In this document: one piece after another, positions 3,442-29,058 of the stretch | How the letters are laid out: each line of letters begins with the position of its first letter | Numbering within the stretch: the first letter of the stretch is position 1 | DNA from: an uncultured Verminephrobacter sp. | GTDB lineage: Bacteria; Pseudomonadota; Gammaproteobacteria; Burkholderiales; Burkholderiaceae_C | DNA: 64,000 nucleotides | NCBI GenBank assembly: GCA_964466605.1 | Contig: CAYXSL010000002.1 | Location: 2,871 to 66,870 of the forward strand | Reading direction: 5' to 3' | Notes under the pieces: model-generated | What the model saw: the letters and a program-made list of their open reading frames with translations, nothing else | What the model was told of the DNA's origin: nothing | The model's database searches: none | Program-made: the position numbers and the translations under genes

Positions 3442-4232
3442 GCCACGGCAAGGTGCTGGAGGTCCAAGGCCACCACGCCGCCACTCCAGCCGCTGTCGCC
3501 CCGGGCGGCCCAGACGATGCAGGGCGCATCGCTCTCGGCCGCCGCCACGCACCGGCCACCGGGCTCCCAGACCGCGCTGCGGCCCGCACTGGCATAGCCG
3601 CCAGAGGGCCCGCTGTAGTTGGCCAGCAGCACGGTCATGGCGTGGTCGCGCGCATAGCCCTGCAGCAGCGCCGACTCGGGGCCGTAGCCCTGGTGGCTGA
3701 TCAAAGCCCCGGCGGCATACAGTGCCGCGCCCTTGCCATGCGCCGCACTGGCGTGTTCAGGGTGGGTGATGTCTGCACACACCGCCATGCCCGTGGGCTC
3801 GCCCGCGAGCAGGTGGACCTGGGCGTCGTCGGTGCCTGCGCTGGCAAAAAGCTCTTCGCTGGCATGCAGATGGCGCTTGCGGTACAGCGCCACGCTGCCA
3901 TCGGGCGCCAGCACCCAGGCGCCAATCGCGGGCAAGGCGCCTGCCTGCACAGGTGCGGCGGGCCCACCAACCAGAATGGCCATGCCCTGGTCGCGCGCGG
4001 CCTGGCGCAGGGCCGCCAGCGCTGCATGCTCGGCATCCAGGACATGGGCAGCCAGCACTGCGGGTTCGTAGCCGGTGAGCGACAGCTCGGGAAACACCAG
4101 CACCTGCACGCCCAGGCTGGCCGCCACCCGCACAAAGGCCAGGTGCGTTTGCACATTGCGCGCCACGTCCCCGGGAGCAGATGGCGATTGTGCGGCGGCG
4201 ATGCGCAGCGGGGTGGACAGGAGTGGGTTCAC
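3438..4232 (-). CDS. Carbon-nitrogen hydrolase (nitrilase superfamily) protein
   Basis: E-K-C triad motifs VFPELSLTGY, YRKRHLH, AVCAD; its stop overlaps the waaA start (ATGA). Confidence 0.88.
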   Translation of the reverse strand: MNPLLSTPLRIAAAQSPSAPGDVARNVQTHLAFVRVAASLGVQVLVFPELSLTGYEPAVLAAHVLDAEHAALAALRQAARDQGMAILVGGPAAPVQAGALPAIGAWVLAPDGSVALYRKRHLHASEELFASAGTDDAQVHLLAGEPTGMAVCADITHPEHASAAHGKGAALYAAGALISHQGYGPESALLQGYARDHAMTVLLANYSGPSGGYASAGRSAVWEPGGRCVAAAESDAPCIVWAARGDSGWSGGVVALDLQHLAVA

Positions 4233-4279
4233 GCGGGCAATTCGTTCAAGGTGACGGTAGAAAAGATAGGGCTGGGCGC

Positions 4280-5668
4280 TCAGTGGCTGGTCGCGCCCAC
4301 ATGGGCGTCGGGCTTGACCTTGTGCAGCAGCGCCAGCATGGCGGCCTCGATGCGCGCCAGCGCCTCGGGGGTATGGCCTTCAAAGCGCAGCACCAGCACG
4401 GGGGTGGTGTTGCTGGCGCGGATCAGGCCAAAGCCGTCGGGCCAGTCCACGCGCAGGCCGTCGATGGTGCTTACCGTGGCGGGTGCGGCAAACTGGCCTG
4501 CGGCCAGGGCCTGCAGCTCGGCCGTGAGGCGGTGGGGTTCGCCCTCGGCGCACGAGACGTTGAGTTCGGGCGTGGAGAAGCTGGTGGGCAGCGCGTTCAG
4601 CACGGCGCTCGGGTCCTGGGACTTGCTCAAAATCTCCAGCAGGCGGCAACCCGCATAGGTGCCGTCGTCAAAGCCATACCAGCGCTCCTTGAAGAAGATG
4701 TGGCCGCTCATCTCGCCGCCCAGCGGCGAGTTGGTTTCCTTCATGCGGGCCTTGATGAGCGAGTGGCCGGTCTTGAACATCACCGGCACGCCGCCTGCGG
4801 CCGCAATGGCGGGGGCCAGGCGCTGGGTGCACTTCACGTCGAAAATGATCTCGCCGCCGGGCACGCGCGAGAGCACATCTTGCGCAAACAGCATCATCTG
4901 GCGGTCGGGGAAGATGTTGGTGCCGTCCCGGGTCACGATGCCCAGGCGGTCGCCGTCGCCGTCAAAGGCCAGGCCCAGTTCGGCGTCGCTGGTCTTCAGG
5001 GCGTTGATCAGGTCGCGCAGGTTCTCGGGCTTGCTCGGGTCGGGGTGGTGGTTGGGGAAGTTGCCGTCCACCTCCGAGAACAGCTCGATCACCTCGCAAC
5101 CCAGCGCGCGGAAGATGGCGGGGGCCGAGGCGCCCGCAATGCCGTTGCCGCAGTCCACCACGATCTTCATCGGCCGGGCCAGCTTCACGTCGCCCACGAT
5201 GCGCTCGCGGTAGGTGGGCAGCACATCCACATGGCGCACCGAGCCGCCGGGCAGCAGCTGCCAGCTCTCCTGCTCCATGGTGCGGCGCAGGCCCTGGATC
5301 TCCTCGCCGTAGATGGCGCGGCCGTTCAGCACCATCTTGAAGCCGTTGTAGTCCTTCGGGTTGTGGCTGCCCGTGACCTGGATGCCGCTGTTGCACAGCG
5401 TGCTGGCCCCAAAGTACAAGAGCGGCGTGGTGACCAGGCCCAAGTCGATCACCTCGATGCCCGCCTCCACCAGCCCCTGGATCAGCGCCGCCGACATGGC
5501 CGGGCCCGACAGGCGCCCATCGCGCCCCACGGCCACGGTGGTCTGCCCCTCGGCGCGTGCGGCGGTGCCAAAGGCCCGGCCCAGGCCCAGGGCCACTTCT
5601 TCATTCAAGGTCGCCGGCACGATGCCGCGGATGTCATAGGCTTTGAAAATGGCAGGCGTTGGTTGCAC
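4280..5668 (-). CDS. algC: Phosphomannomutase/phosphoglucomutase
   Basis: IFKAYDIRG, TGSHNPKDYNGFK (phosphoserine loop), FDGDGDR (metal loop), GEMSGH, RASNT. Confidence 0.93.
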   Translation of the reverse strand: MQPTPAIFKAYDIRGIVPATLNEEVALGLGRAFGTAARAEGQTTVAVGRDGRLSGPAMSAALIQGLVEAGIEVIDLGLVTTPLLYFGASTLCNSGIQVTGSHNPKDYNGFKMVLNGRAIYGEEIQGLRRTMEQESWQLLPGGSVRHVDVLPTYRERIVGDVKLARPMKIVVDCGNGIAGASAPAIFRALGCEVIELFSEVDGNFPNHHPDPSKPENLRDLINALKTSDAELGLAFDGDGDRLGIVTRDGTNIFPDRQMMLFAQDVLSRVPGGEIIFDVKCTQRLAPAIAAAGGVPVMFKTGHSLIKARMKETNSPLGGEMSGHIFFKERWYGFDDGTYAGCRLLEILSKSQDPSAVLNALPTSFSTPELNVSCAEGEPHRLTAELQALAAGQFAAPATVSTIDGLRVDWPDGFGLIRASNTTPVLVLRFEGHTPEALARIEAAMLALLHKVKPDAHVGATSH

Positions 5669-5829
5669 GTCGAGGGACCTTTAGCGAAGGGTTGCAAGGG
5701 CTGCACAGGGGGTTGAGGAACCGGCAGCATTGTAGGCGCCTGCCCCGCCCCGCCCGGTGGCCGGAGCGGGTGCAGGCACATGTCCGAAAACGGCCAGTAC
5801 AGACAACACCGCTCCCTATCATCCAGCCC

Positions 5830-7380
5830 ATGACCTTGCCTCCCCTGCCCACAGCCTCTGTCGCCGACAGCTCTTCGGACGAAGGCCGCTACCTGGCCGT
5901 GCTGGCGCGGGATGCGCGCTTTGACGGGCACTTCTTCACGGCCGTGACTTCCACCGGCATCTACTGCCGCCCCGTGTGCACCGTGCGCACGCCCCGGCGC
6001 GAGAACTGCCGTTTTTTTGCGCTGGCCGCGCAGGCCGAACATGCGGGTTTTCGCCCCTGCCTGCGCTGCCGGCCCGAGCTGGCCCCCCAGGCGCTGGTGT
6101 GGTCGGTGCAGGACGCAAGCAGCATCCTGGTGCAGCAGGCCGTGCGCCTGCTGGATGCGCCCGACCTCTGGCCCACACCGCCCGCACCGGGTGAAGGCAG
6201 CGCCACCGTGGCCCGCCTGGCCGAGCGCCTGGGCGTGAGCGACCGCCATCTGCGCCGCATCTTTGAGGCGGCCCTGGGCGTCTCGCCCCTGCAATACCTG
6301 CAGACCCGCCGCCTGCTCACGGCCAAACAGCTGCTCACCGACACGCGCATGCCCGTCACGCAGGTGGCCCTGGCCAGCGGTTTTGCCAGTGTGCGGCGGT
6401 TCAACGCGGCGTTTGCGGGGCACTACGGGCTCAACCCCACGCGGTTGCGGCGCAGCGGCGCCACCCCGGCCGCATCGTCGGGGCCCGACGGGGGCAGCAC
6501 CCGGCTGCGCCTGGCCTGGCGGCCACCGTTTGATGTGGCGGCGCTGCTGGCGTTTTTTGAGCGGCGGCAGTTCCACGGCGTGGAATGGGTGCTGCCCGAA
6601 GCGGCCACGCTGCGCCGCACCGTGCGCCTGCCCGACAGCGCCACCGGCCTGGGCCAGGAAATCACCGGCTGGTTCAGCGCCTGTTTTGACGTGGCGCGCC
6701 ACCAGGTGCTGTTGCAGACCAGCGACAGCCTCTACTCCGTGTTGCCGCTCGTGATCCGCCGCGTGCGCGCCATGTTCGACCTGGACGCCGACCCGGCCGC
6801 CATCAATGCCGTGCTGCACAGCGCGTTCCCCAACGGCGACGGCCTGCGCGTGCCCGGTGCTTTCGACGGCTTTGAGCTGGCGGTGCGCGCCGTGCTGGGC
6901 CAGCAGATCACCGTGGCTGCTGCACGCACCCTGGGCCAGCGGCTGGTGGAGCGGCTGGGCGAGCCCATCGAAACGCCCTGGCCCGAACTGGGCCGCTTGT
7001 TCCCCACCGCGGCCACGCTGGCCATGGCCGATGGCGACACCCTGGGCCAGCTGGGCATCGTGCGCCAGCGCCAGGCGGCCATCGTGGCGCTGGCCCGGGC
7101 GGTAGACAGTGGTGGCCTGGCTCTGCACGCAGGTGTGGATGTGGCCAGCACCACGGCGGCGCTGTGTGCGCTGCCGGGCATTGGTGACTGGACTGCGCAG
7201 TACATCGCCATGCGGGTGCTGCGCTGGCCCGATGCCTTCCCGGCCGGGGACGTGGCGCTGCACAAGGCGCTGGGCGTGCAGGGCCAGAAGAGCCCGGCGC
7301 GTGCGGCTGCCGCGGCCTCCGAGTCCTGGCGCCCCTGGCGCAGCTATGCCGTGCTGCGCGCTTGGGCCACGCTGGCTTAG
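5830..7380 (+). CDS. alkA: Ada-N/AraC-AlkA fusion (DNA-3-methyladenine glycosylase II with Ada Zn domain)
   Basis: TGIYCRPVC and RPCLRC Zn ligands, AraC HTH, VLGQQITV, HhH LPGIGDWTAQY, DAFPAGD; ATG at 5830. Confidence 0.9.
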   Translation: MTLPPLPTASVADSSSDEGRYLAVLARDARFDGHFFTAVTSTGIYCRPVCTVRTPRRENCRFFALAAQAEHAGFRPCLRCRPELAPQALVWSVQDASSILVQQAVRLLDAPDLWPTPPAPGEGSATVARLAERLGVSDRHLRRIFEAALGVSPLQYLQTRRLLTAKQLLTDTRMPVTQVALASGFASVRRFNAAFAGHYGLNPTRLRRSGATPAASSGPDGGSTRLRLAWRPPFDVAALLAFFERRQFHGVEWVLPEAATLRRTVRLPDSATGLGQEITGWFSACFDVARHQVLLQTSDSLYSVLPLVIRRVRAMFDLDADPAAINAVLHSAFPNGDGLRVPGAFDGFELAVRAVLGQQITVAAARTLGQRLVERLGEPIETPWPELGRLFPTAATLAMADGDTLGQLGIVRQRQAAIVALARAVDSGGLALHAGVDVASTTAALCALPGIGDWTAQYIAMRVLRWPDAFPAGDVALHKALGVQGQKSPARAAAAASESWRPWRSYAVLRAWATLA

Positions 7381-7382
7381 TT

Positions 7383-7447
7383 ACTATTAAAATGATAGCT
7401 TCTAGCGCTTACCCATTGCGCGCAGAAGCCCTTTTTTATCCATAAAA
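7383..7447 (+). repeat. Dispersed ~65-bp palindromic intergenic repeat, copy a
   Basis: ACTATTAAAATGATAGC core followed by TTCTAGCGCTTACCCATTGCGCGCAGAAGCCCTTTTTT. Confidence 0.8.
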
Positions 7448-7461
7448 CACAGGCATCCGCC

Positions 7462-8031
7462 ATGCAATACCACCCCCACACCGTGCAAGCCCGCGCAGAC
7501 ACCGCCCTTGGGCCGGTGCGCCTGGCCGCCTCGCCCACCGGCCTGTGCGGTATCTGGTTCGAAGGCCAGCGCCACGAGCCCAGCGATCGGCTGCATGGCA
7601 GCACTGCCTGGGCCGAGGCGCATGGCCACGCGCTGCTGCGGGAGGCCACCGCCCAGCTGCAGCAGTACCTGCACGGCGAACGCGATGGTTTTGATCTGCC
7701 GCTGGACCTGTCGGGCGGCACGCCTTTCCAGCAAGAGGTCTGGCAGGCCTTGCTGGCCATTGGCCGGGGCGCCACGCGCACCTATGGCGAGCTGAGCCAG
7801 CACCTGGGCCGCCCCCGCGCCGTGCGGGCCGTGGGCGCGGCCGTGGGGCGCAACCCGCTCTCCGTGGTCGTGCCCTGCCACCGTGTGCTCGGCGCCGACG
7901 GCAGCCTGACCGGTTACGCTGGTGGGCTGGACCGCAAGACAGCGCTGCTGGCGCTGGAGAAAGCGCTGGCGTCAAAGCCGGTTCTTTTGCACCACCCCCA
8001 AGCCAAGAACAAGGAGAAAGCCTTCCCATGA
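7462..8031 (+). CDS. ogt: Methylated-DNA-protein-cysteine methyltransferase
   Basis: GTPFQQEVWQAL, RAVGAAVGRNPLSVVVPCHRV active-site motif. Confidence 0.92.
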   Translation: MQYHPHTVQARADTALGPVRLAASPTGLCGIWFEGQRHEPSDRLHGSTAWAEAHGHALLREATAQLQQYLHGERDGFDLPLDLSGGTPFQQEVWQALLAIGRGATRTYGELSQHLGRPRAVRAVGAAVGRNPLSVVVPCHRVLGADGSLTGYAGGLDRKTALLALEKALASKPVLLHHPQAKNKEKAFP

Positions 8032-22001: not shown

Positions 22002-22173
22002 GGGAGCATCCTTTCTTGGTGGATCGAGACAAGCCGGGGTCGGCAGGCTGCGTACAGCGGCCCCGCCGCCGAGCCCTGCGGCACACACAGCCCCACTGTA
22101 GTTTTACGGCCGGGCCCGGGCCCGCCAGCAGGTGCCGCGCTACCATGTCAGACACCGCCCACAGGCCGCCGCC

Positions 22174-22869
22174 ATGCACCACCCATCCGCGCCACACGGA
22201 GCCCAGGCCCCGCACGACAAGGACTACCTGCGCCGCCTGCTGGCCGAGCGCAACCAGGCACCCGCCAATGCCGCAGGCATCGACGCCGCCATTGAGCACG
22301 CCTTTGTGCGCAATGTGGCGATTCTGGTGCTGGACATGTGCGGCTTCTCCCGCATCACGCAAAGCCACGGCATCATCCATTTCCTGGCGATGATTCACCA
22401 GATGGAGCAGGCGGCCCGCCCCGCCATCCGGGGCAATGGCGGCGAAATCATCAAACAGGAGGCCGACAACCTGTTTGCGGTGTTCAACACACCCGCGCAG
22501 GCGCTGGACGCCGCGCTGGACACTTTGCGTGCCCTGCAGGCGATGAACACCGTGCTGCCGCCCGAACGCATCCTGAACGTGAGCGCAGGCATCGGCTTTG
22601 GCCCCACGCTGGTGATTGCGCAGCAGGACCTTTTTGGCCCCGAGATGAATTGCGCGTGCAAGCTCGGCGAAGACATTGCTGGCGCCAACGACATCCTGCT
22701 GACCGAAGCCGCCCATGCAGCCTTGCCGCCGGGCCGCTACGTCTGCGACAGCGCCTGCTACCAGATTTCCGGCATGGATCTGCATGCGCACCGCTACGGG
22801 CACTGCCTGTTCGAGCGGCCCTTGAACCCACCGCCCCCGGGCGTCCATCCCCCGGGTGAACCCAGGTGA
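22174..22869 (+). CDS. Stand-alone class III adenylate/guanylate cyclase domain protein
   Basis: LVLDMCGFS (first Asp), IKQEADNLFA (Lys + second Asp), DLFGPEMNCACKL (N-x-A-x-R/K-L). Confidence 0.8.
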   Translation: MHHPSAPHGAQAPHDKDYLRRLLAERNQAPANAAGIDAAIEHAFVRNVAILVLDMCGFSRITQSHGIIHFLAMIHQMEQAARPAIRGNGGEIIKQEADNLFAVFNTPAQALDAALDTLRALQAMNTVLPPERILNVSAGIGFGPTLVIAQQDLFGPEMNCACKLGEDIAGANDILLTEAAHAALPPGRYVCDSACYQISGMDLHAHRYGHCLFERPLNPPPPGVHPPGEPR

Positions 22870-23270: not shown

Positions 23271-23780
23271 ATGCCCAGCTCTTCGCAAATGGCCGCCGGC
23301 GACCCGGACCTGGCCGCCGCCGTGCGGCGTGCCCGCAAACTGCTGCACCGGCGCGCCCTGGTGGCCGCAGCCGCCAGCATGGTGCCCGTGCCGGGCCTCG
23401 ACTGGGCCGTGGATGCGGCCCTGCTGTCCCGGCTGATTCCGCATATCAGCGCCGAGTTTGGCCTGTCCGCCGGACAGATCGACCAGCTCGACCCCAGCAA
23501 ACGCGAACAGGTGCAAAAGGCCGTGGGCCTGGTCGGCTCGGTGCTGATCGGCAAGCTGATCACGCGCGAGCTGGTGCTGCGCGCCGCGCAGACCGTGGGC
23601 CTGCGCCTGACCACCAAGCAGGTCGCCAAGTACGTGCCCCTGGCGGGGCAGGCCGTGGCCGCCACCTTGGGCTACGCCACGCTGCGCTACCTGGGCGAGC
23701 AGCACCTGCGCGACTGCGTGCAGGTGGTGCAGGAGGCCCGGCTGCAACTGCCCGCCCCTGCCTCTGCCGCGCGCAGGTAG
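23271..23780 (+). CDS. Hypothetical protein (DUF697/EcsC-like helical protein)
   Basis: AAASMVPVPGLDWAVD and KYVPLAGQAVAA motifs; family assignment is tentative. Confidence 0.65.
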   Translation: MPSSSQMAAGDPDLAAAVRRARKLLHRRALVAAAASMVPVPGLDWAVDAALLSRLIPHISAEFGLSAGQIDQLDPSKREQVQKAVGLVGSVLIGKLITRELVLRAAQTVGLRLTTKQVAKYVPLAGQAVAATLGYATLRYLGEQHLRDCVQVVQEARLQLPAPASAARR

Positions 23781-23792
23781 CCCTGGGCAGGC

Positions 23793-25487
23793 CTACTCTG
23801 CCGCGCAGACAAAGCTGCTGGCGTCTTCCACATTGCCCGAGCCCTTGTATTTGGCGAACTGCGGGTAGGCGCACAGCGGCCGCGTGCGGTGGGGCATGAA
23901 GGTGTTGGCGGGCAGCGCCTTGGCCGCAATGGTGTCGGGCGCCACCCCCTTCTCCACCCAGTCCACCATGGCCTGGATCGAATCAAAGTTGTCTGTGGCC
24001 GGGCCGCCCGAGCAGTGGTTCATGCCCGGCACGAGGAAGGTGCGCGCAAAGCCCTGCGTGGCCGCCATGCCGCCATTGTTGGCTGCCAGACGCTCGTAAT
24101 ACTCCAGGGTGTCCAGCGCCGAAAAGATCGGGTCGGACATGCCGTGGATGAACAGCATCTTGCCGCCGCGCTGCTTAAAGGCCGCCAGCTTGTCATCGCG
24201 GTAGGTGTCATAGATGGCCGAGTAAGCCTCCATGCGCGCCGGGTCGGTGTCGAAGTTGAAGGCCAGCGGGTTGAAGCTGAGGTCCGGCGGCGTGAAGAAC
24301 TCGTTCACCAGCGCATCCACCATCAGGGTGATGTAGCGCGCATCGGGTGTGGCGGTGGTGGCGCTGCCCAGCGTCCAGCTGCGCCAGCCGGGCGCAGCCA
24401 GGCCCGGGTCCCAGGGCTGTCCGGCATACAAGGCTTTGCCTGCAGAGTTGCGCGGGCCAGCAAACACGCTCTTGAGTGCACCCACCTGGGCGCTGCTCAG
24501 GCAGCTCGCGCCCTTGGCGCCGGTGCACTGCAGCACCGCCGGGTCAAACTTGCAGGCCTTGACGTTGTTCACCAGGCCGTCGGCCACGCCATCGGCTGCG
24601 TCGCACGACGACTTGACCGCATCGGCCACCAGGTTCAGGTCGGCGTTGCTGAACGCCTGCGACAGGATGCGCTTGCCCGATGCGTCCTGCGGGGCGATGG
24701 CGTCGAACTGAATGGTGTTCCACATGGCCGCCACGGTGGCGCCGCTCGACACGCGCATGGCGGGCGCACCGGCGGTGATGGCGTCAAAGTAGTCCGGGAA
24801 ACGCTGCGAGAACATCATGCCCTGGCGCCCACCGCCCGAGCAGCCCGAGAAGTACGAATGGTCGGGCTTGCGGCCATAGCGCGTGGCAATCAGCGACTTG
24901 GCGGCCACAGCCGTCTTGTCATACGAGTTGTAGGCATGGTCGATGCGCGCCTGCGGGTCGGCTCCGAAGCTGGCGGTGGTGCCGGTGTGCCCCGCGTCGG
25001 TGGACACCACCGCAAAGCCCTGCCCCAGCGGCGACGGCGTGCCGCCCGAGATGCTGGAGCTGAGCGAGGTATCGCGCAGGATGCCGTCGTTGCCGCCCCC
25101 GCCAATGAACAGGAAACGCCCGTTCCATTGGTCGGGCAGGCTCAGCTGAAAGCCGATGGCGTAGTTCTTGCCATCCACGCCCACACGGGGATTGATGGCG
25201 CCCGTGACCACGCAGTGGCCCGGCAGGAAGGTGCCGGTGGCCGCGCCGCCCGGGCGTTTGGTGTCTGCCGCCACATAGCTGGTGGTGAGCGTGGTGGCCG
25301 CCAGCCCGGCCTTGGTGGGCAGCTCGGCGCAGGCCGCAGCGGGCGTGAGCTGCTGGGCCAACGCATCGCCATTGCCGCCACCGCAGGCGGCCATCAGCAG
25401 GGGCATGGTGAGTGCGGCGGGGGCCAGCTTGCGGCGCAGTCCCGCAGCCGGGGGGCTGGCGGGTTGCTGGGTGTGGAGAAAGGGCAT
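23793..25487 (-). CDS. Tannase/feruloyl esterase-family lipoprotein (MHETase-like)
   Basis: Lipobox-like LMAAC, WNGRF, GCSGGGR (Cys-Ser nucleophile), HGMSD, PGMNHCSGG (His-Cys), RTRPLCAYP. Confidence 0.92.
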   Translation of the reverse strand: MPFLHTQQPASPPAAGLRRKLAPAALTMPLLMAACGGGNGDALAQQLTPAAACAELPTKAGLAATTLTTSYVAADTKRPGGAATGTFLPGHCVVTGAINPRVGVDGKNYAIGFQLSLPDQWNGRFLFIGGGGNDGILRDTSLSSSISGGTPSPLGQGFAVVSTDAGHTGTTASFGADPQARIDHAYNSYDKTAVAAKSLIATRYGRKPDHSYFSGCSGGGRQGMMFSQRFPDYFDAITAGAPAMRVSSGATVAAMWNTIQFDAIAPQDASGKRILSQAFSNADLNLVADAVKSSCDAADGVADGLVNNVKACKFDPAVLQCTGAKGASCLSSAQVGALKSVFAGPRNSAGKALYAGQPWDPGLAAPGWRSWTLGSATTATPDARYITLMVDALVNEFFTPPDLSFNPLAFNFDTDPARMEAYSAIYDTYRDDKLAAFKQRGGKMLFIHGMSDPIFSALDTLEYYERLAANNGGMAATQGFARTFLVPGMNHCSGGPATDNFDSIQAMVDWVEKGVAPDTIAAKALPANTFMPHRTRPLCAYPQFAKYKGSGNVEDASSFVCAAE

Positions 25488-25626
25488 GGTGGGTGTCTCC
25501 GGTGTGTTGTAGTTGGAATAAGAGCGGAGCGCGTGCCCGGCGCCGGGCACGGCTGCGCCCCGGCCCGTGCCGCCTGGCAGGTGCGCGGGTCTGGATGCGG
25601 GGGAATGTGTGGAGGAAGCCGGGCGC

Positions 25627-26628
25627 TCAGTCGGCCTTGAAGCCGGTGGCGGCCACGGCCTTGCCCCAGGTCACCGTGTCGGCGGCGATGGTGCGCGCGA
25701 AGTCCTGCGGGCTGGTGCCCGTCACGCGGAATCCAGCCTCTTCCATCTTGGCCCTGCCCTCGGGCGATTGCACGGCTTTGACGATGTCGGCGCTCAGTTT
25801 GGCGACGATGTCAGCAGGCGTCTTGGCCGGGGCCACGATGCCGAACCACGAAGAGAACTCCAGGTTGGCATAGCCCTGCTCCTTGATCGTGGGCACGTCG
25901 GGCAGCGCGTTGGTGCGCAGGGCGCCGGTGGAGCCCAGCGCCGCCAGCTTGCCCGCCTTCACATTGGGGGCGGCCAGGCCCACGCTGGCAAACACACCCT
26001 GCACGTCGCCGCTGAACAGGCCACCCAGCGCGTCCGCAGTGTTCTTGTAGTGCACGGGCTCGGGCTTGAGCTTGACCGCGTCGCCAAACATGAAGGCGCC
26101 AAAGTGCCCCGGCGTGCCCGCGCCAAACGTGGCCAGAAACAGGCCCTTTTGCTGCTTGGTCCAGTCCACAAACTCTTTCACATTGCGCGCAGGCACTTTT
26201 TGTGGGTTGACCAGCAGCACGAAGTCGGAGGTGACGACCTGGCTCACCGGCACGAAGTCCTTGGCCGGGTCGTAGGGCAGCTTGTTGTAGCTGCTGGGGG
26301 CAATGCTGAGCTGACCTGTCTCGCCCAGCATCAGCGTGTAGCCGTCGGGCGCGGCGCGCGCGGCCTCGCTGGCCGCGATCAGGCCCCCTGCGCCGGGTTT
26401 GTTGTCCACGATCACTCCCGCATTGCCCCAGCCCTCCGACAGCTTTTGCGCCAGCAGGCGCGCCACGATGTCCGGCCCCGTGCCTGCCGGAAAGCCCACG
26501 ATGATGCGCACGGGCTTGCTGGGGTAGGCCGCAGCCCCCTGTGCCTGGGCCCCCGCCCAGGGCGCGAGCCCGGCGAGGAGGGATGCAGCCACCAGGGCGC
26601 GGCGCAGGGGGTGAGCGGTGTTTTTCAT
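25627..26628 (-). CDS. Bug/TctC tripartite tricarboxylate transporter substrate-binding protein
   Basis: YPSKPVRIIVGFPAGTGPD, VDNKPGAGG, APDGYTL, LPDVPTIKEQG. Confidence 0.92.
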   Translation of the reverse strand: MKNTAHPLRRALVAASLLAGLAPWAGAQAQGAAAYPSKPVRIIVGFPAGTGPDIVARLLAQKLSEGWGNAGVIVDNKPGAGGLIAASEAARAAPDGYTLMLGETGQLSIAPSSYNKLPYDPAKDFVPVSQVVTSDFVLLVNPQKVPARNVKEFVDWTKQQKGLFLATFGAGTPGHFGAFMFGDAVKLKPEPVHYKNTADALGGLFSGDVQGVFASVGLAAPNVKAGKLAALGSTGALRTNALPDVPTIKEQGYANLEFSSWFGIVAPAKTPADIVAKLSADIVKAVQSPEGRAKMEEAGFRVTGTSPQDFARTIAADTVTWGKAVAATGFKAD

Positions 26629-26720
26629 GGTGTCTCCAGGTATTTGTGCGTTGGGAAAGGTCAAAAGATCAAAGAAAGGGGCAACACGGAGGCAATGGGG
26701 CGGCACAAAGGGGCGGGCCG

Positions 26721-27197
26721 CTAGCGCAGTTCGAAGAAACGCATGGCCACGGCGTCCGGGTAACGCGCGCCGGTGCCCACGAACATGCGCTCGGCAATCC
26801 AGGACAGCGCGGGCGATGCGGTTTCAAAACTCGGACTGCAGCGGAAGTAGACTTGCGCCGGGTCCACCAGCTCGCCACGCACCAGGCGGGCAATCAGCTC
26901 GGCCGGGCCTGAGCGCACGGCACGGTTTTGCACATAGATCAGGTCGCCCCCGTCAGTCTCCAGCACATAGCGTGCATCCAGCTCGGACAGCCGGTCGTTC
27001 ACGATGAGCTGGAAGTCTGCGCCGCCCGGCAGCACCCGCGCGCTCCAGCCATCGCCAGTGGCGGTGCCGCCCAGGATGGGGATCAGCCTGCGCAGGCCGT
27101 GCACGGTGTGGCCCACCTCCTGGGGGTTGCCAACCTCCACGCGGAGATCGGCAAAAAACTGGAATTGCGGCGGGGGCAGGGAAATGGGGTCAGGCAT
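26721..27197 (-). CDS. DUF3237 (UPF0311) family protein
   Basis: RRLIPILGG, VLPGGADFQ, LDARYVLETDGGDLIYV, YFRCSPSFET. Confidence 0.85.
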   Translation of the reverse strand: MPDPISLPPPQFQFFADLRVEVGNPQEVGHTVHGLRRLIPILGGTATGDGWSARVLPGGADFQLIVNDRLSELDARYVLETDGGDLIYVQNRAVRSGPAELIARLVRGELVDPAQVYFRCSPSFETASPALSWIAERMFVGTGARYPDAVAMRFFELR

Positions 27198-27229
27198 GGC
27201 ACCTAGCGTAAGTCCCGTTGCAACCAGCG

Positions 27230-27253
27230 CCTGTCATCCCAGAGGATGACGGG
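27230..27253. promoter_or_regulatory. Palindromic operator candidate between divergent DUF3237 and LuxR-type regulator genes
   Basis: CCTGTCATCC-CAGA-GGATGACGGG with a perfect 7-4-7 core. Confidence 0.6.
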
Positions 27254-27346
27254 ATAACCCGAGCGCCCTGGTGGCCACATTGGCAGCGGTTTCAACGCAC
27301 ACTCCACGTTTTCGCATCCCATTTACCTCGCAATTTCCGACTTTCC

Positions 27347-28243
27347 ATGCGGCAGTGGCTCCCCTCCTCCTCCCAGACTGCGCCTGGCCGGCAGGTGCTG
27401 CACAGTCCCGCCAGCCAGACGCTGGCCAGCATGGTCCACCGCCTGGGTGGCGACGGCTTTGCGCCGGGCCTGCTGCAAGACCTGGAGCCGGTGTTGCCCG
27501 CTGCCTCCTGGTCGGTGTACCGCACCGGCCACCGCTGCAAGCCCACGCTGTTCATGTCGGCCAGCCGGGGCGTGCCCGACACCACACAGGATTGCTGGTG
27601 GGCCTATCTCTCAGGCCCCTACCGCAGCGACCGCACCTGGGGCCGCCCGTTTGACGAAGTGCCCGTGGCCGCGCCCGAAACGCGCCTGTGCCATGTGACC
27701 GCGACCGAGGTCGAGGGCGAGCACCGTGCCCGGGTGTATGAAGCCCACGGCGTGGCCGAGCGCGTGTCGGTGGTGGAGTATGAAAGCGATGGTTCGGTGT
27801 TTGCGGTCAACTTCTACCGCCACCAGCACCAGCGCGCGTTCAGCGACCGGCAGATCAGCGCATTCGAGTCGGTGGCACCCGTGCTGCTGGCGCTCACACG
27901 CAAGCACATCGACCTGTCGCACCCCCACCTGCCCCCCGCCCCGTTGTGGCCGGACACGGCCGCGCCTGGCCCCGTATTGGCGCTGCCAGCCGATGCTGCG
28001 CTGGCCCCGCTGGCTGCGGACGCCCTGCCCGTGCTGCGCATGCGCCTGGTGCGCCTGCAGGCCGAGCTGACCGACCGCGAGCTGGACGTGTGTGCCCGCC
28101 TGCTGCAGGGCATGACCCACGAGGGCATCGCCAGCGACCTGGGCCTGGGCGTGCCCACCGTCAAGACCTACCGCAACCGCGCGTTTGCGCGCCTGGGCAT
28201 CCACTTTCGCAACGAGCTGTTTGCGCGGGTGCTGGGCGGCTGA
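27347..28243 (+). CDS. LuxR/CsgD-type HTH transcriptional regulator with N-terminal sensor domain
   Basis: C-terminal LTDRELDVCARLLQGMTHEGIASDLGLGVPTVKTYRNRAFARLG; start codon uncertain. Confidence 0.85.
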   Translation: MRQWLPSSSQTAPGRQVLHSPASQTLASMVHRLGGDGFAPGLLQDLEPVLPAASWSVYRTGHRCKPTLFMSASRGVPDTTQDCWWAYLSGPYRSDRTWGRPFDEVPVAAPETRLCHVTATEVEGEHRARVYEAHGVAERVSVVEYESDGSVFAVNFYRHQHQRAFSDRQISAFESVAPVLLALTRKHIDLSHPHLPPAPLWPDTAAPGPVLALPADAALAPLAADALPVLRMRLVRLQAELTDRELDVCARLLQGMTHEGIASDLGLGVPTVKTYRNRAFARLGIHFRNELFARVLGG

Positions 28244-28426: not shown

Positions 28427-29058
28427 ATGAAAAGCCTCCACCACACCTGCCACCCCTCCCGGATCGCGCCCTGGTGCCTGGCGCTGGCGTGCATCGCAGG
28501 CACCCTGAACGCCCATGCTGAAGCGCTCATGCGCACCGACGATGCAGGCACGCTGGCCCCGGGCGCGCTGAAACTGGAGGGCACCCTGGGCCGCGACGCC
28601 AGAGCCCGGCCACCCTGCTGCAGGGCCGGGGCTGGGGCGTGAAGTGGGTGCCCATCCAGAACGATGCGGGCTGGTCGCTGGGCGCCCGGGCCGACCTGGG
28701 CCACACCCGCGTGCGCGACGATGCGGCCCCGGCGCACTTTTCCGAACGGGCCTTCACCATCACCGGCCTGGCCACCTACCGGTTTGCCAACGACCAGGCG
28801 CTGCACCTCAATGCAGGCCACCACACCGTCCGCGTGCAGGGCGTGCGCCACCGCGCCGCCACCTGGGCGGTGGGGCATGAGCTGCCGCTCACCGCCCAGC
28901 TGCGCCTCACCTCCGAGGTGTTTGGCGAACAACGATCGCGCCCCGACAAGGCCCTGGGCCTGCGCTACGAGATCACCCAAGGGCTCAAGGCCTCGGTGGC
29001 TGTGGGCCGTGGCAATGGGCGCAACTTCAGCCAGGCGGGCCTGGCCTGGGAGTTCTGA
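28427..29058 (+). pseudogene. Frameshifted and probably internally deleted outer-membrane beta-barrel-like protein
   Basis: Signal peptide + MRTDDAGTL in one frame (stop 28642); amphipathic strands ending AWEF in another; the frame changes near 28600-28610. Confidence 0.6.

Follow-up and report, generated by a model that had tools for sequence, protein, structure and literature searches.

A conserved esterase, binding-protein and DUF3237 gene module beside a LuxR-type regulator in Comamonadaceae: a candidate system for scavenging aromatic esters

What does a relative of the Ideonella sakaiensis enzyme MHETase do in a predicted operon with an orphan binding protein and a DUF3237 protein, opposite a LuxR-type regulator? 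The question is raised by a locus at positions 23793-28243 of a 64,000-nucleotide stretch of contig CAYXSL010000002.1 (assembly GCA_964466605.1, uncultured Verminephrobacter sp., positions 2,871 to 66,870 of the forward strand), referred to here in its full length as the window. We read the source genome (G000, with the window on its contig C2) as one of Acidovorax. We find that the four genes form a module that recurs across several genera of Comamonadaceae behind a precisely spaced predicted operator. The reading that best fits the evidence, to which we give a probability of about 55%, is that of a self-contained operon under the control of a ligand, serving to scavenge a carboxylic ester of an aromatic acid: the esterase would release the acid, the binding protein and a TctAB permease would take it up, the DUF3237 protein would convert it and a LuxR solo would serve as the switch.

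The module and its predicted operator

Pfam searches confirmed all four genes in the arrangement that the original prediction had given them, namely three co-oriented genes divergent from a regulator gene with a LuxR-type helix-turn-helix (HTH). The first gene of the operon (26721-27197, minus strand) encodes a DUF3237/UPF0311 protein of 158 amino acids without a signal peptide, which matches PF11578 at 2.3e-42 (144.6 bits, profile positions 1-148 of 149). The second encodes a Bug/TctC-family periplasmic solute-binding protein (SBP) of the tripartite tricarboxylate transporter (TTT) type (25627-26628, minus strand; PF03401, 7.4e-59, 200 bits, profile positions 1-272 of 274) with an N-terminal export signal (MKNTAHPLRRALVAASLLAGLAPWAGAQA), and the third a tannase/feruloyl-esterase-family lipoprotein of 564 amino acids (23793-25487, minus strand; PF07519, 2.2e-126, 423 bits against a cut-off of 29.8, profile positions 1-490 of 490). 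The regulator gene (27347-28243, plus strand) encodes 298 amino acids, with a GAF/PAS-like N-terminal domain that is predicted to bind a ligand and a C-terminal GerE HTH (PF00196, 1.9e-9, residues 283-334 of the long open reading frame). The frames used in the Pfam search were longer (tannase 23793-25550 and TctC 25627-26706, minus strand; regulator 27218-28243, plus strand). We placed the starts of the esterase and SBP genes at the ATG codons at 25487 and 26628 because a GGAGA Shine-Dalgarno sequence sits 7-10 nt upstream of each, and moved that of the regulator from 27218 to the ATG at 27347 because orthologs from many genera keep an MR[QK]W N-terminus. Gaps of 92 bp and 139 bp separate the three co-oriented genes.

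That these genes belong together is seen in their conservation. From species-representative genomes we fetched 58 loci with genes for relatives of the esterase, and we clustered all the genes around them. The LuxR gene divergent from the DUF3237-TctC-esterase set was syntenic in roughly 40 of the loci, across several genera and with unrelated flanks (Acidovorax, Comamonas terrae, Variovorax, Pseudorhodoferax, Xylophilus and further Comamonadaceae), and the four families of the module were the sole neighbours to recur across genera, all others being genus-specific. The order of the genes varies, with DUF3237 lying 3' of the esterase gene at three loci (L025, L030 and L048), and single partner genes are sometimes missing. 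A survey of the family covered 151 genomes at about one per genus: 45 had DUF3237 homologs and 42 had close esterase homologs, and in 9 the DUF3237 and tannase genes were adjoining or about 1.5 kb apart. The grouping of the four genes is far beyond chance. The earlier proposal of a module of esterase, TTT binding protein and DUF3237 with a regulator of its own is supported, and the module is conserved.

The operon is preceded by a palindrome with the core GTCATCY-N4-RGATGAC, which is 18-22 bp long and often 22 bp in full (CTGTCATCC-TCTG-GGATGACAG). In the window this palindrome, CTGTCATCC-N4-GGATGACGG, occupies 27231-27252 on no particular strand, with the core GTCATCC-N4-GGATGAC at 27233-27250, and the hexamer TACGCT at 27205-27210 (minus strand) is the predicted -10 element of the operon promoter. 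A composite of the palindrome, exactly 22 variable nucleotides and the hexamer was found in 45 of the fetched loci across genera, the hexamer being TACGCT in 44 of these and TAACCT in the remaining one. The palindrome is lux-box-like, overlaps the predicted -35 region and is taken as the predicted operator. TACGCT agrees with the -10 consensus at T1, A2 and T6, and if it is the -10 element, the palindrome would be centred at about -43 from the predicted start, where class II activators classically have their lux box. The perfect core occurs only once in the 4.8-Mb genome, and the regulon therefore appears to be purely local. Loci of Delftia and Xenophilus (L009 7848, L012 7906, L024 7823 and L028 7695) keep the palindrome, the 22 nt and TACGCT directly 5' of an esterase gene that has no adjacent LuxR, TctC or DUF3237 genes, so that the regulator must act there in trans, from another place in the genome; the neighbours of the Delftia ortholog (LysR, aminotransferase and LptFG genes) are uninformative. 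A terminator scan of the locus gave a single terminator-like site, inside tctC and below chance, and the hairpin between tctC and the tannase gene was no better than shuffled sequences (z -1.05).

The ATG of the DUF3237 gene in the window (27197) lies 7 nt past the hexamer and lacks a Shine-Dalgarno sequence, as is also the case at L001, L004 and L023. Translation of the first gene in this lineage of Acidovorax may accordingly begin on an mRNA without a leader, the transcription start being predicted at the ATG or within 1-2 nt of it; in other genera a leader of 30-100 nt with a Shine-Dalgarno sequence precedes the first gene.

The N-terminal domain of the regulator gave no match to Pfam Autoind_bind at E<0.01. 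An AlphaFold model built from 18 orthologs, with a mean predicted local distance difference test score (pLDDT) of 83, had TraR, QscR, SdiA, LasR, RhlR, CviR and VqsR as its top Foldseek matches (probability 1.0), the first six of them as whole chains, and structures of ligand-binding domains only matched it with target-normalised template-modelling (TM) scores of 0.53-0.66. The domain is strongly conserved among the orthologs, with many invariant His, Cys, Trp and Tyr residues. Because the modelled fold matches that of acyl-homoserine lactone (AHL) receptors while Autoind_bind is not detected, we read the regulator as a LuxR solo with a divergent, AHL-receptor-like ligand-binding domain. At L070 (genome G148, 4063-7573) a LuxR protein of the same type with 39% identity and the same operator stands before genes for a PhyH-family dioxygenase, a Peripla_BP_6 SBP of the ATP-binding cassette (ABC) type and a DUF3237 protein, and this pair of regulator and operator therefore appears to be reused with other uptake and enzyme partners. 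In a Pseudorhodoferax metagenome-assembled genome (L033, 3000-6275, minus strand) the LuxR frame runs to 1091 amino acids, which may be a fusion or an artefact of assembly or frameshift.

The predicted acid and the probable role of DUF3237

In the scheme that we favour, the exported, lipid-anchored serine esterase would hydrolyse an aromatic ester outside the cytoplasm, whether in the periplasm or on the outer membrane, and its hydrolytic parts are intact (the Ser-Asp-His triad, the active-site disulfide and four further disulfides). The dedicated Bug/TctC protein would then capture the released acid and, judging from what is known of its family, deliver it to one of a few shared TctAB permeases encoded elsewhere. 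The genome has 49 TctC homologs against about 2-3 TctA genes or fragments, which is the usual orphan Bug arrangement, and no cognate TctA or TctB genes were found beside the SBP gene in the window or at the orthologous loci. The DUF3237 protein lacks a signal peptide and should therefore act on the imported acid, most likely by a cofactor-free decarboxylation via a quinone-methide-type intermediate like those of PhcF, PhcG and PinX. The LuxR solo would bind the palindrome near -43 and would probably activate the single operon promoter, with the ester or its acid as the inducing signal. The sequence from ester to acid to uptake was already part of the original prediction and is upheld here as the best reading.

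The module had also been expected to give DUF3237 a pathway context. It does so, but it is not the first to do so since several members of the family are already characterised. In Sphingobium SYK-6, PhcF (SLG_09360) and PhcG (SLG_09370) decarboxylate DCA-CC enantiospecifically, and PinX of Novosphingobium decarboxylates lariciresinoate, all three enzymes acting on lignin-derived phenolic acids and needing no cofactor (PMC9942872, PMC12607616, PMC12997858). These reactions, like that of the fungal family member PhnH, are thought to use quinone-methide-type intermediates of p-hydroxyphenyl compounds. The window protein, whose gene is the sole copy in the genome and which matches PDB entry 3c5o at 1.8e-38, is predicted by analogy to be a cytoplasmic, cofactor-free enzyme of the decarboxylase type.

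The nature of the acid is indicated by the contexts in which DUF3237 is found elsewhere. Among orthologs with 61-72% identity to the window protein, one (G052) lies with a complete Liv-type ABC importer and a MarR gene, another (G135) with genes for an HpaI-type aldolase, a MarR regulator, a VanA-like Rieske oxygenase and an SBP, and a third is that of G148, described above. In G032, genes for an enoyl-CoA hydratase (ECH), an acyl-CoA ligase, a short-chain dehydrogenase/reductase (SDR), DUF3237 and TctC form one string, and its ECH, ligase and SDR are 72%, 63% and 80% identical to those of a cluster on contig C4 of the window's own genome (L064, 833-11121). This cluster comprises genes for an ECH, a 622-amino-acid acyl-CoA ligase, an SDR, a TctC protein, an acyl-CoA dehydrogenase (ACAD) and two tandem tannase-family proteins. 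On a Variovorax plasmid, a DUF3237 homolog with 36% identity has as neighbours a protein annotated as feruloyl-CoA synthase, which shares 43% identity with the C4 ligase, as well as an ECH and two TTT SBPs. These contexts argue for a gene network in Comamonadaceae whose parts (tannase-family esterases, TTT SBPs, DUF3237 and a CoA-dependent pathway for side chains) are interchangeable, and the C4 cluster is probably a hydroxycinnamate-ester utilisation cluster. They point to an aromatic and probably phenylpropanoid acid, and a phenylpropanoid-type (hydroxycinnamate-derived) substrate is the leading option within the scheme, although we hold it tentatively and at less than even odds. The caveat of the original prediction that the ester could be of the feruloyl type rather than the MHETase substrate mono(2-hydroxyethyl) terephthalate (MHET) is thus supported by the gene contexts found.

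Several observations weigh against the scheme or parts of it. The linkage of the genes is not obligatory, as some genomes hold a tannase or a DUF3237 gene alone, and in the neighbour clustering of the fetched loci no further catabolic genes travelled with the module. A generic sigma-70 promoter scan returned 0 promoters at the locus, the -10 assignment and the mode of activation being pattern-based. There is no lignostilbene-dioxygenase-type (RPE65) gene in the genome, which weakens the case for a literal PhcF/PhcG-type pathway. The CoA-ligase, ECH, SDR and ACAD genes receive only generic names from NCBIfam, so that the acid could be non-aromatic and the label of feruloyl-CoA synthase rests on the annotation of another record. 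Finally, PhnH is a hydroalkoxylase and not a decarboxylase.

The reaction of PhnH leads to the alternative that survives best, in which the logic of esterase and SBP holds but DUF3237 performs another quinone-methide-type step, such as hydroalkoxylation, ring opening or isomerisation, or merely binds a hydrophobic product. In favour of this, the three family structures that have been solved were all deposited under the label UPF0311 or as uncharacterised, and the orthologs have varied partners, among them a PhyH dioxygenase and a VanA-like oxygenase. However, the characterised bacterial members PhcF, PhcG and PinX are all decarboxylases, and the constant pairing with carboxylate-binding SBPs fits a carboxylate substrate, and we consider another type of reaction unlikely, if far from negligible.

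A decarboxylase could also serve a different class of ester. If the substrates were hydroxybenzoate-type esters (gallotannins, depsides, methyl gallate or parabens), the freed hydroxybenzoate would be decarboxylated by DUF3237, much as a tannase works together with a gallate decarboxylase; the esterase family is named for tannases, and esterases are known to be paired with non-oxidative decarboxylases. Known DUF3237 enzymes, however, act on beta-carboxylates beside a p-hydroxybenzylic carbon and not on benzoates, the contexts of the DUF3237 orthologs point to side-chain chemistry of the CoA-ligase/ECH type, and the proteobacterial members of this tannase-family radiation score closer to feruloyl esterases (FAEs) than to tannases (PMC7568301). 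A hydroxybenzoate ester is in our view a doubtful candidate.

A more specific route within plant phenolics can be drawn from the substrate of PhcF and PhcG, as DCA-CC is, by its chemical name and synthetic origin, 8-5-benzofuran diferulic acid, a cell-wall cross-link that is normally freed by feruloyl esterases. The module may then process diferulate cross-links. The esterase would free the 8-5-(benzofuran) diferulic acid of arabinoxylan fragments from grasses, and the dicarboxylate would be imported by way of the TTT SBP. Decarboxylation and ring opening by DUF3237 would then yield the stilbene DCA-S, which we take to be poacic acid, a known antifungal, and the non-AHL LuxR solo would sense the plant ester. 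If this were true, root-associated Comamonadaceae could turn phenolics of the cell wall into a bioactive stilbene by a route that a plant signal switches. We rate the chance of this as low because the genome is without a lignostilbene dioxygenase.

The esterase and the binding protein beside MHETase and TphC

The signal peptide of the esterase (25383-25487, minus strand), as read from the translation, ends in the lipobox L-M-A-A-C35 followed by Gly at +2. LMAAC fits a PROSITE-type pattern, and 105 of 118 esterase orthologs have a motif that resembles a lipobox; solely by the +2 rule, the lipoprotein would be sorted to the outer membrane, and the surface position given in the original prediction is no more than a candidate location. 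In alignment, the triad Ser217, Asp452 and His491 corresponds to S225, D492 and H528 of MHETase, and the active-site disulfide cysteines C216-C492 to C224/C529. All ten cysteines of MHETase are present and are conserved in at least 99% of the 118 orthologs. The MHETase-like sequence blocks that the original prediction quoted are real in the HMMER alignment to the PDB chains of MHETase, which are matched at 6e-127, with fungal FAEs following at about 1e-43. MHETase is the top structural match because of what has been crystallised and not because it represents the closest family.

Identity between the esterase and MHETase is 45.5% by BLASTP and about 45-50% over the whole mature protein, while the characterised MHET-active homologs are 73-81% identical to MHETase. 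About 25 other representative clusters at 50% identity outscore MHETase's own cluster (P0270) against the window esterase. In a maximum-likelihood tree of 81 sequences the esterase falls in a clade of 6 rows (SH-aLRT 98), and MHETase and P0270 fall in a separate clade of 17 rows (SH-aLRT 96); the own-genome paralog L059 is reliably placed in this tree, and two others, L061 and L062, were out of frame and were disregarded.

The residues of the pocket tell the same story. The lid segment that lines the acyl pocket spans residues 371-397 (24297-24377, minus strand), where W371, R384/Y385, L388, M389, A392 and F397 align with W397, R411, F415, S416, S419 and F424 of MHETase. In MHETase numbering, G131, G226, V254, L415, M416, A419 and I494 are invariant in the 118 orthologs, and MHETase has S131, E226, L254, F415, S416, S419 and A494 at these seven positions. 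From the set that determines MHETase specificity (S131, E226, F415, S416, S419 and F495) only F495 is retained, and in MHETase itself either of the mutations S131G and E226T costs much of the activity (PMC7568301). The lid had been proposed to keep Arg411 and Phe424 and to replace Phe415 and Ser416 by Leu and Met. Both replacements are confirmed, as is the Phe (F397, invariant in the 118 orthologs), whereas the equivalent of Arg411 shifts with the alignment. In two of them, HMMER pairwise and MAFFT with 81 sequences, the column holds Tyr and the preceding column Arg; in the MAFFT alignment of the 118 orthologs it holds Arg, which 89 of them have, the placement of a one-residue gap deciding between the two.

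The description of the enzyme as MHETase-like is therefore not sustained, given its place outside the MHETase clade, its identity of 45.5% and the absence of S131, E226, F415, S416 and S419. By these comparisons it is a relative of MHETase but not an MHETase, and we assign it as a new, uncharacterised member of the proteobacterial FAE-like radiation. Literature searches found no characterised member of its clade, and nothing on the tannase of Acidovorax sp. GW101-3H11 or on the tannase family together with TTT; those on PF07519 gave papers on fungal secretomes, on a fungal tannase producer and on MHETase. A fourth tannase-family gene, possibly a pseudogene, lies on contig C55 of the window's own genome (L065, 4314-8456), and its frame held one TGA in the genome search. 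This gene adjoins genes for a DUF2817 protein and for a GerE-type regulator that shares only the HTH with the window regulator.

A special tie of the SBP to the terephthalate-binding proteins TphC and TBP is likewise not supported. Its PDB matches are uniform (1e-40 to 1e-53), all Bug structures scoring alike and BugE (2dvz, 1e-52) better than TBP (2e-49) and TphC (2e-46). Judged by these matches it is an ordinary orphan Bug protein, for which a link to terephthalate in particular cannot be claimed.

It is very improbable, then, that a true MHETase-type enzyme and a TphC-like SBP here scavenge terephthalate or phthalate mono-esters from synthetic polyesters or plasticisers. What speaks for this is the best solved-structure match, the retention of W397, F424, F495, the triad and all disulfides, the Arg that aligns with R411 in one alignment and in 89 of the 118 orthologs, and the presence of TBP and TphC among the PDB matches of the SBP. 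These are outweighed by the low identity, the different and supported clade, the roughly 25 closer clusters, the Gly residues at 131 and 226 where the corresponding or similar changes cost MHETase much of its activity, the replacement of F415, S416 and S419, an SBP no closer to TphC than to BugE, the lack of tph genes in the module in any genus among the 58 clustered loci and the lack of any known role for DUF3237 in terephthalate catabolism.

The idea that the module processes or quenches a signal, with the LuxR solo sensing an exogenous ester or lactone, the esterase inactivating it and the SBP importing the product, draws on the AHL-receptor fold of the regulator, the lux-box-like operator at about -43 and the apparently purely local regulon marked by a single perfect core in the genome, but it is just as remote given the missing Autoind_bind match, a DUF3237 protein and phenylpropanoid-type contexts that have no obvious signalling role and the fact that tannase-family enzymes are not known as lactonases.

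In the window the module is flanked by unrelated genes, which encode an SNF2 helicase, Ada, AlkB, a glucose/sorbosone dehydrogenase, an NlpC/P60 protein and an isochorismatase. Two open reading frames on either side of it (23271-23780 and 28639-29058, both plus strand) are well-coding, with a G+C content of 0.84-0.90 at third codon positions (GC3), and neither is matched by a Pfam family. Only 12 bp separate the first from the esterase gene, to which it is convergent, and it is kept beside the module within Acidovorax only. Further away, a frame at 22132-22869 (plus strand) has a weak adenylate/guanylate-cyclase catalytic domain (PF00211, 2.4e-5) and is followed by a gene for a small transglycosylase-associated (GlsB-like) membrane protein.

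Significance and comparison with known systems

The general theme of an esterase working with uptake and a decarboxylase is already known, nothing in the module contradicts current understanding and its MHETase flavour is incidental. What the locus offers is an operon context, open to test, for a large uncharacterised clade of proteobacterial tannase-family lipoproteins, for one of the many orphan Bug/TctC proteins of Comamonadaceae and for a bacterial DUF3237 subfamily outside the sphingomonad lignin pathways. The combination of a non-AHL LuxR solo, a precisely conserved predicted operator and an apparent regulon of one operon also makes it a clean system for ligand discovery. Near-identical orthologs (96% amino-acid identity) are present in Acidovorax sp. 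GW101-3H11, a strain for which a barcoded transposon library exists, and the hypothesis is therefore quickly testable. For surveys of plastic degradation the esterase is a caution, as a best PDB match to MHETase at E 1e-127 does not mark an MHETase.

Set against Ideonella sakaiensis MHETase (EC 3.1.1.102; PDB 6QZ1/6QG9), the esterase shares the tannase-family fold, the predicted lipoprotein nature, the triad with its active-site disulfide, the ten cysteines and the equivalents of W397, F424 and F495. It differs in its separate clade, in seven changed pocket residues and in an equivalent of R411 that is both ambiguous and variable, and its gene has as partners DUF3237 and a LuxR solo instead of adjacent terephthalate catabolic genes. 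With the proteobacterial and fungal feruloyl esterases of the tannase family, such as AoFaeB (3WMT) and FoFaeC (6FAT), it shares the Pfam family, the catalytic apparatus and a predicted hydroxycinnamate-type acyl group, and paralogs in its own genome lie in a CoA-ligase/ECH/SDR/ACAD cluster, although the solved FAEs are matched at only about 1e-40 to 1e-44.

The SBP resembles TphC/TBP, BugD, BugE and AdpC in its TctC fold, its Sec signal and its membership of a carboxylate-binding family, but BugE (1e-52) is at least as close to it as TphC/TBP (2e-46 to 2e-49), and its gene has no adjacent TctAB genes. The regulator has in common with LuxR solos and AHL receptors (TraR, QscR, SdiA and LasR, and the solos that bind plant compounds) the two-domain architecture, the matching fold of the ligand-binding domain, the C-terminal GerE HTH and a palindromic operator of roughly 20 bp about 43 bp 5' of the predicted start. 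In contrast to AHL receptors, its ligand-binding domain is too divergent for Autoind_bind and has its own invariant set of His, Cys, Trp and Tyr residues, and it is predicted to control a local operon of the catabolic type and not a quorum regulon.

The DUF3237 protein, compared at the family level only, is like PhcF, PhcG and PinX in its Pfam family, its size (about 150-160 amino acids) and its lack of a signal peptide, and like theirs its gene is associated with genes for aromatic-acid uptake and a regulator. The difference lies in the surroundings, since PhcF, PhcG and PinX belong to dilignol pathways of sphingomonads, where they are controlled by MarR and their step precedes that of a lignostilbene dioxygenase, while the DUF3237 protein of the window is partnered by an esterase and a TTT SBP.

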